Part shown: positions 40,478 through 47,252 of the stretch, piece after piece
How positions within the stretch are numbered: position 1 is the first letter of the stretch
Layout: each line of letters begins with the position of its first letter
Assembly (NCBI GenBank): GCA_052168235.1
Contig: JBQLZK010000060.1
Coordinates: 1 to 47,910 of the forward strand
Length of the DNA: 47,910 nucleotides
From: Thainema sp.
Lineage (GTDB): Bacteria > Cyanobacteriota > Cyanobacteriia > Phormidesmidales > Phormidesmidaceae
Direction of reading: 5' to 3'
Notes under the pieces: model-generated
What the model was told of the DNA's origin: nothing
The model's input: only the letters and a program-made list of their open reading frames with translations
Databases searched by the model: none
Translations under genes and position numbers: made by a program

Positions 40478-41404
40478 ATGGAAGAACAATATATCGGATT
40501 GACTGCTTGCGATGAATGTGGAGCGAGATTTCGAGTCAAGCGTAAGCATCAGCATTTAGTGGGTCAGCCTGTCCGATGTCCCAAATGCAGCAGCATCTTT
40601 ACGATGGGTTTGATTGATTTGAGTCCTCTTGAAACCGCTGCAATTGAGCAAGAAACCACAGAGACAGCATCAGAAGAGGATCAAAAGCAGTCTCGACGAC
40701 GTACAAAGGCTGAAATTAAGCAAGAACTGATTGATTCAATCCGCGAAAATTTCCGTTTGTTACATCCGCGTTTGACAGAAATTTCCAGTGCAGCTCGTTC
40801 GTCAGAAGAAGCCGTCAGAATTTGGGTCGTTGATGCACTCGAAAAAGCGCTGGGTTACAGCAAAAGCAATATCGATACTGAGATCTCTACAATCGGTGGG
40901 CGCATTGATATTGCGCTGCGACAGGATGATCATGTGTTCATGGTCATTGAATGCAAAAATATCCGGGCAAAGCTGAATAAAGCAGTTCGGGATCAAGCGA
41001 TTAACTACGCAACTACGCTTTCCGCAGAATGGGCAGTTGTTACCAATGGAGCGATCTGGAAGTTATACCGAGTAATTCCACAACCCGGTCGCGATCCTCA
41101 TGTGATCGAAATTTTTGATTTGTCTCTGCTAGATGAGGATGGTGTTAGTGAAGCGGATGCAGAAAACCTTTACTTACTAACATCCAGGGCTGTATTTGGC
41201 GGCGACTTGGAGAAGATGAGCCATTTACTAGCCTGTACGAGTAAAAAGAGAATTTTGAATGCTTGTTTGTCAGAGAGGGTAATTAAAGCGTTTCGTTTAG
41301 AGTTGTCTTCTGTGTATAAAGATGAGCATGATGTCAACGTCAGGCTTGATGATGAAGAGGTGACAAACGCATTGCGAGAAGCATTTTCCCTCATCGATCT
41401 CTAA
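40478..41404 (+). CDS. Zn-ribbon (MJ0042-like) plus HsdR N-terminal PD-(D/E)xK nuclease domain protein
   Basis: CDECGARFRV...VRCPKC zinc ribbon. Nuclease motifs SEEAVR, LGY, RIDIAL...IECK, QAINYA and VVTNG..W.LY. Confidence 0.8.
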   Translation: MEEQYIGLTACDECGARFRVKRKHQHLVGQPVRCPKCSSIFTMGLIDLSPLETAAIEQETTETASEEDQKQSRRRTKAEIKQELIDSIRENFRLLHPRLTEISSAARSSEEAVRIWVVDALEKALGYSKSNIDTEISTIGGRIDIALRQDDHVFMVIECKNIRAKLNKAVRDQAINYATTLSAEWAVVTNGAIWKLYRVIPQPGRDPHVIEIFDLSLLDEDGVSEADAENLYLLTSRAVFGGDLEKMSHLLACTSKKRILNACLSERVIKAFRLELSSVYKDEHDVNVRLDDEEVTNALREAFSLIDL

Positions 41405-41487
41405 ACGCTAGGCAGAGTATATCTTCAGGTTGGATGAGTATCATGAAAACTGTTTGCTCATCACACATCCAACCACAGCAGGACAAC

Positions 41488-42273
41488 ATGGGATATACGC
41501 TCATTACTGGCGCATCATCTGGCATTGGGGCAGCCTTTGCTCGTAAGTTGGCGGCGCGGCAGGCCAACTTGATTTTGACCGCTCGCTCAGAAGAGAAGCT
41601 GATGGCATTGGCGCAGGAACTGCGCGATCGGTTTCAGGTTGACGCTCAAGTGATTGTCAAAGATTTGACGGCTCCAAGTGCGATCGTAGATTTGTGGCAG
41701 CAGATTGAAACCCAGGGTTGGGAGATTGATCAGCTGATTAATAACGCAGGCTTTGGGGACGTGGGCGAGTTTGCTCGTTCCGATCTACAGCGGCAGTTGA
41801 CGATGGTTCAGCTCAACATTGCTGCGGTAGTCGAGCTTACCCACCGCTGTTTGCCCGCCATGCAGCGGCGCAGATCCGGCAGCATCATTAACCTCTCGTC
41901 TATTGCTGCCTTCCAGCCGATGGCCTACTGGTCGGTCTATGCGGCATCGAAAGCCTTTGTACTGAACTTCAGCGAAGCGCTGTGGGCTGAGAATCAAGAC
42001 ACCGGAGTTAAAATTCTTGCCCTGTGTCCTGGGCCAACCGAAACGCAGTTTTTCAAGGAAGCCGGACTGAACGAATCTGGTACGCCAAGTTCCGGCCTGC
42101 AAATGACGCCGCCCGAAGAAGTGGTGGAAGAGGCATTGAACGCCCTGGCTCAAGGCCAATCATCCGTCGTCACAGGTGGCTTGCCCAATCAGCTGATTGC
42201 CAATGTGCCCCGCTTTTTGCCGAGAGATGCGATCGCAAAGCTGGTTGAAAAGCAGTTCAGGTCAACGAAATAA
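41488..42273 (+). CDS. Short-chain dehydrogenase/reductase
   Basis: LITGASSGIG, LINNAGFG and YAASK motifs. Likely ATG at 41488. Confidence 0.92.
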   Translation: MGYTLITGASSGIGAAFARKLAARQANLILTARSEEKLMALAQELRDRFQVDAQVIVKDLTAPSAIVDLWQQIETQGWEIDQLINNAGFGDVGEFARSDLQRQLTMVQLNIAAVVELTHRCLPAMQRRRSGSIINLSSIAAFQPMAYWSVYAASKAFVLNFSEALWAENQDTGVKILALCPGPTETQFFKEAGLNESGTPSSGLQMTPPEEVVEEALNALAQGQSSVVTGGLPNQLIANVPRFLPRDAIAKLVEKQFRSTK

Positions 42274-42298
42274 ATCCACAAAATCAATCCGCAAACTG

Positions 42299-42333
42299 AG
42301 AGGGAGCATTGTGTCATAATGCTCCCTCTTTTT
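42299..42333 (+). terminator. Intrinsic terminator after the SDR gene
   Basis: AGAGGGAGCATT...AATGCTCCCTCT followed by TTTT. Confidence 0.8.
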
Positions 42334-42383
42334 AGTGCAAACCTAAAGCGATCTAACTTGCTTTAACGACTGTCGGGAATCGG

Positions 42384-43454
42384 TTAGTCGTCATCATCAT
42401 CATCATCGTCGTCGTCATCATCATCGTCGTCGTCGTCATCGTCATCATCATCGTCGTCATCATCGTCGTCATCATCATCGTCGTCATCGTCGTCGTCGTC
42501 ATCATCGTCGTCGTCACCATCAATATCCACATCCACATCAGTGGTGATGGTCTGTTCTTGCTCGATTTCGATGGTTTCCAGGCCAACAAAGTTGATGCTG
42601 TTCACGATATAGGCAGACTGAATGCGTTCAACCCGACCCAGATAGGCCAGCGTTTGATACATAAACGCACAAGCCTCGGAACGAGAGACAACTTGGGTCA
42701 GATTTAGCGATCGCACTTGGGGATAGTTCACCAAAATGCCGCGCTCAACCAAAGCCGCAATGATCACTCGATACTGACTGGGAATTTCGTCAGCGTCATC
42801 AAAAATGCTCAGCAGTTGGTCAACGGACTGCCCAGAGGAAACCTGCGTAATCCCAAGCCCTCTGGCGAGCATCACCAGCATGTCTAAGCGAGTCATGCCG
42901 CTATCAACATCAATGCTGCCGTTATCTAAATCCAGGAAGCCCATTGAGTAAGCAGTTTGAATCGCCTCATACGCCCAGTAGCTGCGGGATAGATTACGAA
43001 TCGTCACCAACTGCCGCGTCGCTGGCATATCAAACGCTTGAGCAATCATCGCAGCATACTGCGCTTTCGTAAGTACTGCCGAAGGACGGAATTCATCATC
43101 GGGAAAACCGCTGACCACCTGAATTGCCGACAGGCGGTAGATGAAGTCACTTGCCCAGTAGTTAGAACTCAAGTCGGTGTAGCGCACCTGAGTCACACTG
43201 GTTTGGCCAACGGTGGTCTGACCCAGGATAATCTCGCCGCCTTCTGCCTGATCGGCTGTGTCAACAGCGATCTCATCCAGCAGGGAGTCATCCAGCAGCC
43301 AGTTGAAGTCCTCAATCGGGCCATTGATGGTGCCGCTTGCATTTTCGCCTGCGGCCAAGGAAGCGGGGGCAAAGCTGCTGCCGATAATTGCCGCGATCGC
43401 AACAGCAGACAAGGGTAATGTACGTCGTAATGGAATCCAGCGAATATGTTTCAT
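42384..43454 (-). CDS. Exported S-layer-homology (SLH) domain protein with C-terminal poly-Asp tract
   Basis: Signal peptide, three SLH-like repeats (YTDL...YWA...SGFPD..FRP...TKAQ; YWAY; VNYP...SRSEA), and 43 Asp codons before the stop. Confidence 0.9.
   Translation of the reverse strand: MKHIRWIPLRRTLPLSAVAIAAIIGSSFAPASLAAGENASGTINGPIEDFNWLLDDSLLDEIAVDTADQAEGGEIILGQTTVGQTSVTQVRYTDLSSNYWASDFIYRLSAIQVVSGFPDDEFRPSAVLTKAQYAAMIAQAFDMPATRQLVTIRNLSRSYWAYEAIQTAYSMGFLDLDNGSIDVDSGMTRLDMLVMLARGLGITQVSSGQSVDQLLSIFDDADEIPSQYRVIIAALVERGILVNYPQVRSLNLTQVVSRSEACAFMYQTLAYLGRVERIQSAYIVNSINFVGLETIEIEQEQTITTDVDVDIDGDDDDDDDDDDDDDDDDDDDDDDDDDDDDDDDDDDDDDDDDDDD
42387..42515 (-). repeat. GAY x43 codon repeat (poly-Asp)
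   Basis: 129 nt of irregularly mixed GAT/GAC codons. Confidence 0.95.
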
Positions 43455-43780: not shown

Positions 43781-44824
43781 TTACTCAAGATAGCGATCGC
43801 AAAACTGCTGAAGCTGAAGTTTGCACTGTTGTGCCCAATCAGATTTGGCTCCAACCGCATGAGCGCAGCGCGTGCCATAGGCCAGGGTGTAGACCATTGC
43901 GGCACCGATGGCGATCTGCTCCTCTGCGGTAAACTGCCAACCTCTAGCGGTTTCGTACTCGCGAATAAACGCCTCGGCGTCAGCCACGGTAATCGTTCGA
44001 GCAGGTGGGCCAATACGCCAGTCGTGGGCATAGCAACGAGCCGCACCACCGACAAAAAAGGCTTCTGGCCCTACGCACAGACTGTCCCAGTCAAAAGCGC
44101 TCGTAATTTGCCCTCGCTGAAAGGCCATATTTTGCAGGCTCCAGTCGGCATGACCGATTATCCAGGGCAGTTTAATGTCCAGTAGCAACCGTTGGGCGCG
44201 AGTTGCGATCTCATCAATCCATTCCGCTCCAGCGGCTGTTTTCTCAAAATCAAACAGAGTATTGTGCGGCGTCGGCCAAAGCGGTTTCACCGTCTCCCCA
44301 TCTAGCCACGGCATCCAAGGTGCTAAATCGAGCGGTGCGTCCCATGAACAGGTGTGGTGAATCAGTTCCGCTAGCTTAACGGCCATGCGTTGCCGTACCT
44401 GTGGATTAAACGGTGCAGTGGTTTCACCTGGATCGCAGTAGCTTTGGGCGACAAACAGGGTGCCGTCCTGAATTTGCGGTGCAACGAGAATGGCGGGACA
44501 GGAAAATCCTACTTTTGCCAGTTTGGCCTGAATTTGAAAGCTGCTACACAGGGCAGGCGGTTGTAGAGCAAGTAGACCATGCTCAATCCCGTAGGCTTTG
44601 AACACAACGACCTGCGCGTTTCTGAGCCGAACGACGACCGTTGCCCCGACTGAAACATAAGCAAAGCTGCAGCTTTCGATATCAGACTGAAGGGATGTGC
44701 GAGCAAACTGAGCAAACGCGGTACTGATGCGCTCTGGAGCAGTTGTGCCAAAGATGCTGTGGGTGATGGGGCAATCGTCTAGCTCAAGCTGCTGAATGTG
44801 ATCGGTGAGAGACTGCCAGTTCAT
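43781..44824 (-). CDS. Aminoglycoside-phosphotransferase/choline-kinase-like protein
   Basis: VVFKAY, IGHADWSLQNM (HxDxxxxN) and AFDWDS motifs. Likely ATG at 44824. Confidence 0.8.
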   Translation of the reverse strand: MNWQSLTDHIQQLELDDCPITHSIFGTTAPERISTAFAQFARTSLQSDIESCSFAYVSVGATVVVRLRNAQVVVFKAYGIEHGLLALQPPALCSSFQIQAKLAKVGFSCPAILVAPQIQDGTLFVAQSYCDPGETTAPFNPQVRQRMAVKLAELIHHTCSWDAPLDLAPWMPWLDGETVKPLWPTPHNTLFDFEKTAAGAEWIDEIATRAQRLLLDIKLPWIIGHADWSLQNMAFQRGQITSAFDWDSLCVGPEAFFVGGAARCYAHDWRIGPPARTITVADAEAFIREYETARGWQFTAEEQIAIGAAMVYTLAYGTRCAHAVGAKSDWAQQCKLQLQQFCDRYLE

Positions 44825-47252
44825 TGGCCGAGCGCTGCACTGGAATTTGAATGATAAATTCTGCTCCGTGACCGGGTGAGGAGGCAACCTCTAATTTGCC
44901 GCCGTGCTTCTCGGTGATGATTTGATAGCTGATCGACATGCCCATGCCCGTACCTTTGCCGATTGCTTTGGTCGTAAAGAATGGGTCGAAAATGCGGCTT
45001 TGTACCGCTGGCGGAATGCCTGGGCCATTATCTGCGATCGCAATTTCCACCCAAGTCTGATCGAGCAGCCCAGTACGAATTGTAATCCGGTACGGCGGCT
45101 TGCCCTTCTCCTCCAGCGCATCAATGGCATTGGACACAATATTCATCACTACCTGATTGAGCTGACCGGGATAGCATTCGACGGGTGGTAATGTATCGTA
45201 CTGGCGAATCACCTCAATCGCAGGCCGATCGCTTTTAGCTTTCAGGCGATGCTGCAAAATCAGCAGCGTGCTTTCAATCCCTTCATGAATATCAACGGCT
45301 TTGAATTCAGCCTCATCCATGCGGGAAAAATTGCGTAGGGACAGCACAATTTGCCGAATGCGATCGCTACCAATTTGCATCGAATGCAGAATTTTGCCCA
45401 AGTCCTCCTGCAAAAATTCCAGATCCATCTCGTCGGTCGCATCCAAAATCTGATCCAGTGGCTCTGGATACGCCTGCTGGTACAGCTCCACTAAGCGCAG
45501 CAAGTCCCGAGAGTAGGTTTCAATATGCGTTAAATTACCGTAGATAAAATTGACCGGGTTATTAATTTCATGCGCCACCCCCGCTACAAGCTGACCAAGA
45601 CTGGACATTTTCTCGGCCTGCACCAGTTGAGTTTGAGTGCGCTGCAAATCGGTCAGCGTCTGCTCAACCTGCTCCCGCGCTTCAGTAATGGCGGCAATTT
45701 GGGGCAAACTCGTCCAACATGCGATCGCAACCCCGATAAACGCTACCGTCACCAGCAAAATGCTAAACAGCGCCGCGTGAGTGGTGAGATCTGTGCGCTC
45801 CAGCCTGGCTCGCGCTAGCCAGCCAATGCTGACGGCTGCACAAATTAAGGCAATCAAAATCGTCACCTGTAGCGCCACCCAGTCGGCTTTGGCATTAATC
45901 GAACGCGGCACCTGATCGCGCTGCCACCACCAGCTTGGTTGCAGCACCCGCAGCCGCAAGCGAGGCAACTGAGTCGCGACAGTACCCACGATTAAAGGCA
46001 TCGCCAGCCCCATCATCCAGTCCTGCCAGCCCCAGGCAATGCCGCCCCCAATCAGCACAATGCTCTCCAAAATGAAGAAGCCCAACGAGAGCGTTTGCCA
46101 ACGGGTTTCGATGCGATCGCGGCTGATCCATTCGCCCAAGTGAATCGCCATCATCGAGGTCAAGTAGCCCGTCCCCGTCACCATCACCACCCGAGCCACA
46201 TCTCCCCAAATCAGCGACAGTAGGCTAAGCGCAAAGGTAAATAGCAGGCCCGGTGCCAGTACTGACCGCCGAGAAATCACGCCGAACACGGGCGGAATGT
46301 ATTTATCCTGAGCTAACTGATAGAGCAAACGCGGACAGTTAGCGACTGCCGTTGCTGAACTGAGCAAGCAGCCAGAAGTAATCAAAAACGTGACGAGCGC
46401 TGGCCCCATGCTGCCCCAAAATGGCTGACTAGCAGCAATCAGGTTTAAGTACGTGCTATCCGCTGCTGCTGCATCGGCAGCCAGACGCATGACGACCCAA
46501 GAGCCACCGACATAAACAATGGGAATCAGGCTGGCCGTCACTGCCAGACAGCGCAGCGTTACCTGTGGTCGCCGACTATCGGCCACAAACGAAGACGCGG
46601 TTTCACAGCCATACACGGCGTAGACGGCAATATAAAACCATTTCAGCCAATCAACTACATTAGGCGTCGGCCACACATCTGGCAGTAGGCCGGGACTAAC
46701 GGGCGAAGTGCCTAGCCAGGTCATCCCCTGCAGGCAAAAGGTCATCAAGAAGCCAATGGCTGGAAACACGAAAAAGGTGTGGAGAATGCCGATGGTGCGG
46801 GTGCCGCTGAAGGCAACGATGAACGGCAGCGCCAAAAAGCAAATTCTCAGCAGGGTGACGGGTACATAAAACCCCAGGGGCACCAGGTTGGATTCAATCA
46901 AACCCGCCAGAATAATAGCGTTCATGGCCGGAACGGAAATCCAGCCCAGAAAGTAGCCCATCGCGGCGTATTGGGCCAAAACTGGAAACCGTCTCAGCAG
47001 GTGAGTGGTGTAGTTCGGCGTACCACCGGAAACATCTGGGACGTAGGTGCCAAGGCGTTTGACCTGGAGGTTCAGCAGAATACCAATCACGGCACCGGGA
47101 ATCCAAACAAGCAGCGCATTTGGCCCCAAGGCAGTATGCATGGCAGGCGCGGTTCCTAGCCACAGCAGCAGTCCGCTAAAGCCAAACCCCCAGGTTTCTA
47201 GCGACGATAAGCTGCGAGGCAAATGGAACTTTAAATTGGTGGGTGGATTCAT
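44784..47252 (-). CDS. APC-family amino-acid permease fused to a sensor histidine kinase
   Basis: N-terminal multi-TM region (ETWGFG, SGGTPNY, YGCET, PRLLYQLA). C-terminal EKMSSLGQLVAGVAHEINNP, NQVVMNIVSNAIDA, DNGPGI, FDPFFTTK and GTGMGMSISY. Confidence 0.9.
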   Translation of the reverse strand: MNPPTNLKFHLPRSLSSLETWGFGFSGLLLWLGTAPAMHTALGPNALLVWIPGAVIGILLNLQVKRLGTYVPDVSGGTPNYTTHLLRRFPVLAQYAAMGYFLGWISVPAMNAIILAGLIESNLVPLGFYVPVTLLRICFLALPFIVAFSGTRTIGILHTFFVFPAIGFLMTFCLQGMTWLGTSPVSPGLLPDVWPTPNVVDWLKWFYIAVYAVYGCETASSFVADSRRPQVTLRCLAVTASLIPIVYVGGSWVVMRLAADAAAADSTYLNLIAASQPFWGSMGPALVTFLITSGCLLSSATAVANCPRLLYQLAQDKYIPPVFGVISRRSVLAPGLLFTFALSLLSLIWGDVARVVMVTGTGYLTSMMAIHLGEWISRDRIETRWQTLSLGFFILESIVLIGGGIAWGWQDWMMGLAMPLIVGTVATQLPRLRLRVLQPSWWWQRDQVPRSINAKADWVALQVTILIALICAAVSIGWLARARLERTDLTTHAALFSILLVTVAFIGVAIACWTSLPQIAAITEAREQVEQTLTDLQRTQTQLVQAEKMSSLGQLVAGVAHEINNPVNFIYGNLTHIETYSRDLLRLVELYQQAYPEPLDQILDATDEMDLEFLQEDLGKILHSMQIGSDRIRQIVLSLRNFSRMDEAEFKAVDIHEGIESTLLILQHRLKAKSDRPAIEVIRQYDTLPPVECYPGQLNQVVMNIVSNAIDALEEKGKPPYRITIRTGLLDQTWVEIAIADNGPGIPPAVQSRIFDPFFTTKAIGKGTGMGMSISYQIITEKHGGKLEVASSPGHGAEFIIQIPVQRSANELAVSHRSHSAA

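Follow-up and report, generated by a model that had tools for sequence, protein, structure and literature searches.

Modules of three S-layer homology (SLH) repeats are known from Sap of B. anthracis (3PYW, 6BT4) and SpaA of P. alvei (6CWC and related entries), where they anchor large self-assembling Gram-positive S-layer proteins, and a TRAE-like motif with a basic residue is expected in each of the repeats. Long aspartate runs are found in the acidic tail of calsequestrin and in the mollusc shell proteins Aspein and Asprich, in which they serve high-capacity Ca2+ binding or carbonate control; the binding of Ca2+ by poly-Asp is established chemistry. The wall teichoic acids of Gram-positive bacteria are a wall-attached polyanion that holds Mg2+ and Ca2+ near the membrane. 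Here we analyse a gene of the cyanobacterium Thainema sp. (assembly GCA_052168235.1; 7.54 Mb in 205 contigs), an open reading frame (ORF) with an ATG start at positions 42384-43454 on the minus strand of contig JBQLZK010000060.1, which encodes a 356-aa SLH protein ending in 43 consecutive aspartates. The window, i.e. the whole stretch of DNA that was analysed, is this entire 47.9-kb contig (C60; 47,910 nucleotides). Comparison with its orthologues identifies the window copy as a derived truncation of a subtype that carries a Cys-containing tail. While anchoring by SLH modules is already well known, an SLH protein with a homopolymeric Asp tail as its sole other feature appears to be new, and full-text searches gave no published SLH protein with poly-Asp, as judged mostly by titles and abstracts.

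The modules of Sap and SpaA share the three-repeat fold of the window protein (Foldseek E 1.4e-6 to 2.6e-4; template modelling (TM) score by target 0.65-0.77), but the sequence identity is only 13-22%, and only a linker and poly-Asp follow the module in the window protein. A further likeness to these systems is a pyruvyl transferase of CsaB type encoded in the window genome (PF04230, 128 bits against a cut-off of 25.3). Calsequestrin, Aspein and Asprich resemble the window protein in composition alone, since they show no homology to it and belong to other folds and compartments. Teichoic acids are phosphate polymers attached covalently to peptidoglycan, whereas the window protein would be docked through its SLH module.

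Related systems are also found among cyanobacteria. In Synechocystis, SLH domains are exposed to the periplasm and bind a pyruvylated polysaccharide linked to peptidoglycan, and less of the CsaB homologue leads to weaker SLH binding (bioRxiv 10.1101/2020.03.24.006684). The SLH-OprB proteins Slr1841, Slr1908 and Slr0042 and the OmpM-type tethers are likewise described as having a periplasm-facing SLH for pyruvylated polysaccharide on peptidoglycan. However, these proteins combine one SLH with a beta-barrel and tether the outer membrane, whereas the window protein has three SLH repeats and no barrel. All3983 of Anabaena 7120 is another cyanobacterial protein with three SLH domains, and on its side there is an experimental tie to Ca2+: according to PMC12548389, an alr2269 mutant induces it when Ca2+ is lacking and growth at low Ca2+ depends on it, and the authors propose Ca2+ recruitment and outer-membrane stabilisation. 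It differs from the window protein in that the same paper places its SLH domains at the N-terminus (residues 21-210) and calls it a predicted S-layer protein.

Anatomy and fold of the SLH protein

The 356-aa protein consists, in order, of a signal peptide, an acidic segment, a three-SLH module, a linker rich in Glu, Thr and Asp, and 43 Asp directly followed by TAA. This anatomy had been claimed in an original prediction made on this DNA, and sequence, Pfam, an AlphaFold2 (AF2) model and Foldseek agree with it. The putative Sec signal peptide (residues 1-34; 43353..43454, minus strand as for all parts of the gene) has a basic n-region, a hydrophobic core and an A-x-A-like cleavage site between SLA and AGE, which was read by eye with the -3/-1 rule and not from a predictor; the orthologues align from the same start in this region. 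It is followed by an acidic segment (residues 35-90; 43185..43352; net charge -11; predicted local distance difference test (pLDDT) 30-40) that includes the motif GPI(E/Q)DFNWL, conserved in the tailed clade. The three tandem SLH repeats (residues 91-285; 42600..43184; net charge -5) are supported by Pfam, the AF2 core and Foldseek, and lead into the linker, which ends in DVDVDIDG (residues 286-313; 42516..42599; net charge -8; pLDDT ~40). The 43 Asp codons (residues 314-356; 42387..42515) add a net charge of -43 in a region predicted to be disordered, and the TAA stop (42384..42386) adjoins them. The mature protein has a net charge of -67.

The Pfam SLH profile (PF00395) matches the protein with 55 bits against a cut-off of 20.8 (E 7.9e-15), and the only single repeat above the cut-off on its own is that at residues 91-134. 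The presence of three repeats is supported by structure, because the AF2 core aligns to solved three-SLH modules over 176-185 columns: all 14 Foldseek matches at E <= 0.001 are SLH modules, including B. anthracis Sap 3PYW (E 1.4e-6, TM score by target 0.75) and the three-SLH structures of P. alvei SpaA. The model, built from 26 homologues, has a mean pLDDT of 62.9. In its confident core the block means reach 79-94 for residues 121-240 and 71-87 for residues 241-280, while the N-terminal segment, the linker and the Asp tail (pLDDT 51-59, without secondary structure) are all disordered. The SLH motif positions are occupied by TKAQ at 129, TRLD at 188 and SRSE at 257. T129, T188 and R258 are invariant in the 26 homologues, and the window copy keeps all 44 columns that are invariant over this set. 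The sequence suggests that residues 91-285 constitute a wall-polysaccharide-binding module.

Apart from SLH, no domain was found in the protein with Pfam and NCBIfam (the NCBIfam scan gave nothing beyond SLH), and no beta-barrel family was among the matches. Beta-barrel strands are also absent from the AF2 model, which is disordered outside the SLH core. A large self-assembly (crystallisation) domain of the S-layer type is likewise not present, as seen from Pfam, NCBIfam and the disorder of the model outside the core.

The final 43 codons before TAA encode Asp only, with 23 GAC and 20 GAT interleaved (script count, as assembled), in agreement with the mixture of codons noted in the original prediction. 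In-frame (GAY)n runs of at least eight codons occur only three times in the whole genome, with lengths of 43, 8 and 8, and the other homopolymer runs of at least 10 residues genome-wide are P12, G12, S12 and A10 (in open frames of at least 100 aa). The D43 run is far beyond chance.

Variable Asp tracts and a lost Cys tail in the orthologue family

The original prediction had proposed that homologues be collected, and orthologues are indeed found across Nodosilinea/Leptolyngbya-type cyanobacteria. A word-indexed search with residues 36-313 gave 28 proteins, the named ones being Nodosilinea proteins annotated as 'S-layer homology domain-containing protein'. A six-frame search of 173 genomes of the order had matches at E <= 1e-30 in 150 of them, a number that includes paralogues of ~40% identity, and a scan of named genomes gave 69 loci in Nodosilinea, Leptolyngbya, Phormidium tenue, Tildeniella, Kaiparowitsia, Trichocoleus, Halomicronema and, more distantly, Nostocales. 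The uncharacterised SLH family thus defined (Nodosilinea, Leptolyngbya, Phormidium tenue, Tildeniella, Kaiparowitsia, Halomicronema) comprises true orthologues with cores 50-93% identical to that of the window protein and with the same SLH module and C-terminal poly-Asp. For instance, core identity to the window protein is 92.8% for P0001, 88.3% for the same-genus genome G171 and 84.8% for P0003, and 63-68% for P0004 (Nodosilinea-named) and P0007 (another tailed homologue).

The usual order in this family is a signal peptide, a conserved GPIQDFNWL motif, an N-terminal poly-Asp tract, poly-Thr, three SLH repeats, a Thr/Glu linker with the C-terminal poly-Asp, and a Cys-containing tail of ~38 residues. 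Compared with this arrangement, the window copy is without the Cys tail and without the N-terminal poly-Asp and poly-Thr tracts, which are missing in the source genus, and it has the longest run (43 versus at most 31).

After an unrelated Clostridia SLH match (L002) had been dropped, 45 of 51 loci could be parsed, i.e. the window and 44 others; these counts are partly non-independent, as L001 and L022 are one record and L019 hardly differs from L020. In the 44 other loci the longest C-terminal Asp run is 5-31 residues (median 13), an N-terminal Asp run of at least 5 is present in 36, and the Cys tail follows the tract in 31. The 13 tail-less loci all stop 0-4 residues past the poly-Asp run, seven of them exactly in Asp, and one such group, which includes Leptolyngbya sp. 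PCC 7375 and Heron Island J, has D22-D27 and then the stop. The regular-expression parse left out six of the 51 loci (L033-L038), three of which (L036-L038) were read separately: one of them has the tail, and in the other two the protein stops with GD after the poly-Asp. At least five other genera have tail-less forms with poly-Asp at the end. Tract length ranges from 7 to 31 inside the Nodosilinea group alone, GAT and GAC are mixed in all orthologue tracts examined, and tracts of D22-D29 are located on contigs of 5.5-8.2 Mb. Larger SLH proteins of Nostocales have Asp runs of up to D30 plus the same Cys tail. Because poly-Asp C-termini recur in the orthologues, D43 is the extreme of a recurrent design and not an isolated oddity.

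The Nostocales proteins are 560-710 aa long (L108-L117 and L121, the latter from a Nostocaceae metagenome-assembled genome) and have an N-terminal poly-Asp tract, of up to D30 in L121. After it come repeated Cys-containing domains, a basic Lys-rich region, three SLH repeats and the Cys tail.

The closest relatives of the window copy, P0001, G171, P0002 and P0003, retain the tail after interrupted Asp-rich regions. When 20 distinct orthologue tails are aligned, 26 of the 41 columns (38 consensus positions) do not vary, while the cores are only ~60% identical. The tail is absent from the window genome, in which tblastn with four tails gave a best E of 0.14 and a hidden Markov model (HMM) search gave 0 matches. 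A frameshift hiding the tail was considered and rejected, since three-frame translation downstream of the stop, like the genome tblastn and the HMM, shows no tail. Instead, what remains of the ancestral gene end, diverged but still in frame, follows the new TAA (42353..42383, minus strand): six codons and the old stop, which align with the same-genus locus L004 (of G171), and 10 downstream bases shared with it. The ungapped, in-frame alignment of the remnant with L004 has 19 identities in 25 and a score of 25, compared with a mean of 12.2 (sd 2.1) for shuffles, none of which reaches 25 (0/2000), and the remnant has diverged at positions near-invariant elsewhere. As a remnant of the old 3' end with its stop follows the new TAA, ~30 tail codons have been deleted; the timing of the deletion rests on protein comparisons for P0001-P0003. 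The original prediction could not show that the protein is a truncated member of a normally Cys-tailed family, a history that emerges from the orthologue alignments.

The Cys tail (~38 residues, two Cys) occurs at loci L001 and L004-L031 (e.g. L004:1267-1389, minus strand) and in proteins P0029-P0177. Of 1.84 billion representative proteins, 159 (36-1074 aa) contain a match to it at E <= 0.001, in the large majority located at or near the C-terminus. Among 18 that were examined, the match is internal in P0065, P0069, P0086 and P0134; many of the 18 are SLH proteins, and some are not SLH and are apparently non-cyanobacterial. Two copies of the tail without the Cys pair are found in P0029 and P0030, and 43 of the 173 genomes of the order have the tail exactly once. 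It corresponds to no Pfam or NCBIfam family and has no PDB sequence match at E <= 1. The Atlas gave no usable feature match and, by structure, only another cyanobacterial SLH cluster. The tail looks like an undescribed binding or sorting module.

Against the same-genus orthologue, the ratio of nonsynonymous to synonymous substitution rates (dN/dS) of the core is 0.08 (dS 0.94, 300 codons), and relative-rate counts of unique changes in the window copy and its relatives are 4 vs 4, 1 vs 3, 4 vs 5 and 3 vs 12. By these measures the SLH core is strongly constrained, with no rate acceleration in the window lineage. The acidic region evolves differently: the P0002 and G171 proteins are 99.2% identical in the core, yet show several differences in the acidic region. 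In the window tract, Tandem Repeats Finder gives a 27-nt (nine-codon) unit as best (4.7 copies, 89% matches, score 203; period 3 scores 110), and the GAT/GAC autocorrelation at lag 9 is 0.68 (p 0.02 alone, 0.32 when corrected over 20 lags), a hint that a nine-codon block was duplicated as the run lengthened. In view of this 27-nt unit, the mixture of GAT and GAC, taken in the original prediction as evidence of selection on the protein, argues weakly for it, but the recurrence of poly-Asp across genera offers the stronger argument for the same conclusion. The family tracts would change fast, as repeats expand and contract by multiples of three; in the window lineage an in-frame deletion took the Cys tail, so that the stop now adjoins the tract, and no other Asp run seen is as long.

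Proposed role and competing explanations

The best reading of these data, which we hold tentatively, is that of an SLH-anchored periplasmic protein at the wall polysaccharide whose disordered polyanion binds Ca2+ and Mg2+. Sec export would deliver a soluble envelope protein, and the three-SLH module would dock it non-covalently on pyruvylated polysaccharide attached to peptidoglycan, in the periplasm and at the wall. The tail is most likely situated under the outer membrane, because SLH faces the periplasm, the signal is of Sec type and there is no outer-membrane or export module. As a disordered polyanion with a charge of about -43, the tract would be a high-capacity, low-affinity binder of divalent ions (Ca2+, Mg2+, perhaps Mn2+), by which cations might be concentrated and buffered beside the wall and the outer membrane's inner face. 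The protein would thereby correspond to the anionic polymers in the walls of Gram-positive bacteria. In favour of this reading are the CsaB-type gene of the window genome, the recurrence of poly-Asp among the orthologues, the constraint on the core, and All3983 as a precedent for a three-SLH protein connected with Ca2+. A wider proposal, which we regard as possible but doubtful, is that filamentous cyanobacteria possess an undescribed class of SLH-anchored poly-Asp brushes whose length is tuned by repeats and which serve as cation reservoir and outer-membrane stabiliser, in the role of teichoic acids; such brushes may be free-ended, as with D43, or capped by the Cys module, which would tie the brush to a second partner.

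Several observations weigh against a cation-binding role of the tract. P0003 has no Asp run longer than 2 although its tail is kept, and a C-terminal Asp run of at least 6 is present in only 18 of the 28 database homologues; as far as these sequences tell, the tract is dispensable in some relatives. Since the 27-nt unit hints at multi-codon duplication, the purity of the tract may reflect youth, i.e. recent duplication and not selection. The window copy could be functionally impaired because a near-invariant tail has been lost, and a consensus promoter and terminator scan found no sigma-70-like promoter on the strand of the SLH gene. Among the compared loci, L004 of the same genus alone has flanking genes in common with the window, and the neighbourhood gives no functional clue. 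Finally, All3983, likened here to the window protein by its three SLH domains, has a different architecture.

The wall-anchored polyanion of the original prediction is retained in the reading preferred here, but its second part, control of calcification, is less likely than cation binding, given that a tail inferred to lie under the outer membrane favours the binding of envelope cations over external CaCO3 nucleation. In such a scheme wall-anchored poly-Asp would nucleate, template or, like free polyaspartate, inhibit CaCO3 at the cell surface, and we consider it quite unlikely. Poly-Asp does strongly affect CaCO3 growth, the tract is extreme and located in the envelope, and many homologues are from marine or mat-forming filamentous cyanobacteria, as judged from record names. 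Polycarboxylate-stabilised amorphous CaCO3 is moreover the subject of PMC10761707. However, an SLH module with a Sec signal and no outer-membrane or export module would place the tail beneath the outer membrane and away from external carbonate, the records give no link between tract length and habitat, and full-text searches gave no paper tying an SLH-poly-Asp protein to calcification. An electrostatic role without metal storage is also unlikely, though less so than mineralisation; here the tract would be a spacer or brush for wall-outer-membrane spacing or hydration, a docking site for polyamines, a basic protein or some such basic partner, or a competitor within the protein for the SLH groove that binds anions. 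The disorder and high charge of the tract would fit this, as would its freely varying length in the family, expected of a spacer, and its linker-like position between the SLH module and the conserved terminal module in the tailed relatives. A spacer would nevertheless not require pure Asp, as the Thr/Glu linkers of the same proteins already serve, there is nothing to space after the tract in 13 of 44 loci and in the window copy, and with the cation concentrations of the envelope, divalent ions would be bound by the tract in any case.

The deletion of the tail and its diverged remnant are compatible with yet another explanation, in which the functional tail was lost and the 43-Asp run is a by-product, a hypermutable repeat whose length drifted to an extreme after the gene had been disabled in part. 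The hint of 27-nt periodicity, the near absence of the tract in the close relative P0003 and the faster evolution of the acidic region than of the core (P0002 vs G171) point the same way, but the ORF is intact, its core is not relaxed, those five or more other genera have kept tail-less forms with a poly-Asp end, and frame-preserving repeats leave a gene active; we therefore judge this improbable. Mis-assembly of a low-complexity repeat could also have produced the tract length or the stop junction, considering that the genome is a draft in 205 contigs and that a 129-nt imperfect repeat is hard for short-read assemblers. Yet the tract is 5.4 kb away from the nearer end of its 47.9-kb contig and similar tracts (D22-D29) exist on megabase contigs, and a mis-join is argued against by the in-frame, diverged remnant that follows TAA, which mis-joining would not create. 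An artefact is accordingly highly improbable, and the least credible of these alternatives.

Neighbouring genes and significance

A strong hairpin lies between the convergent SLH and short-chain-dehydrogenase genes (42298..42330, no strand assigned; fold energies -25.5 and -27 kcal/mol; z -5.4 and -6.8). It is likely a terminator; its U-run is on the plus strand only, and it was not called by the consensus scan. The downstream gene (window 41434-42273, plus strand) encodes a short-chain dehydrogenase (adh_short, E 1.8e-49) which is found in none of the compared loci. In G171 the downstream gene (L004:479-820, plus strand) is instead a 113-aa DUF326/Csp1-like, Cys-rich four-helix protein (NCBIfam 35.7 bits, below cut-off), and the swap between the two same-genus genomes starts ~12 nt past the ancestral stop. 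Further along, window 40478-41404 (plus strand) encodes a protein of 308 aa that combines a zinc ribbon at its N-terminus with an HSDR_N_2 domain (type I restriction R-subunit N-terminal/PD-(D/E)XK-like; E 1.3e-14), and a sequence with 94% identity to it over 105 residues (204-308) is present in the same-genus locus.

On the other side of the SLH gene, window 43781-44887 (minus strand) has an APH-family phosphotransferase-like ORF (E 2.9e-8). Its called TTG start overlaps the end of an 822-aa ORF by ~100 nt and has probably been called too early. The 822-aa ORF (window 44784-47252, minus strand), read from its translation, combines an apparent many-helix membrane domain with a histidine kinase. 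The two D8 runs elsewhere in the genome are both on contig C1, minus strand, in open frames of 778 and 806 aa. One D8 protein on C1 resembles an Omp85/BamA-type barrel by sequence context, and the other run is three residues from the end of the 806-aa frame. An Omp85 of Anabaena is reported as a Ca2+ channel in PMC12548389.

If the tract has no role, the case would show the speed at which a homopolymer can grow in a constrained bacterial gene. For biomaterial work, the protein represents a ready-made, self-anchoring poly-Asp display module. The handling of Ca2+, Mg2+ and Mn2+ by the cyanobacterial envelope is poorly understood, and it bears on outer-membrane stability, on the supply of photosystem II and on carbonate precipitation. 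The family described here is a genetically tunable candidate for such handling, in which a wall-docking module is combined with a pure polyanion of ~0 to 43 residues between strains, and because a natural length series and both tailed and tail-less forms exist, the question is directly testable.

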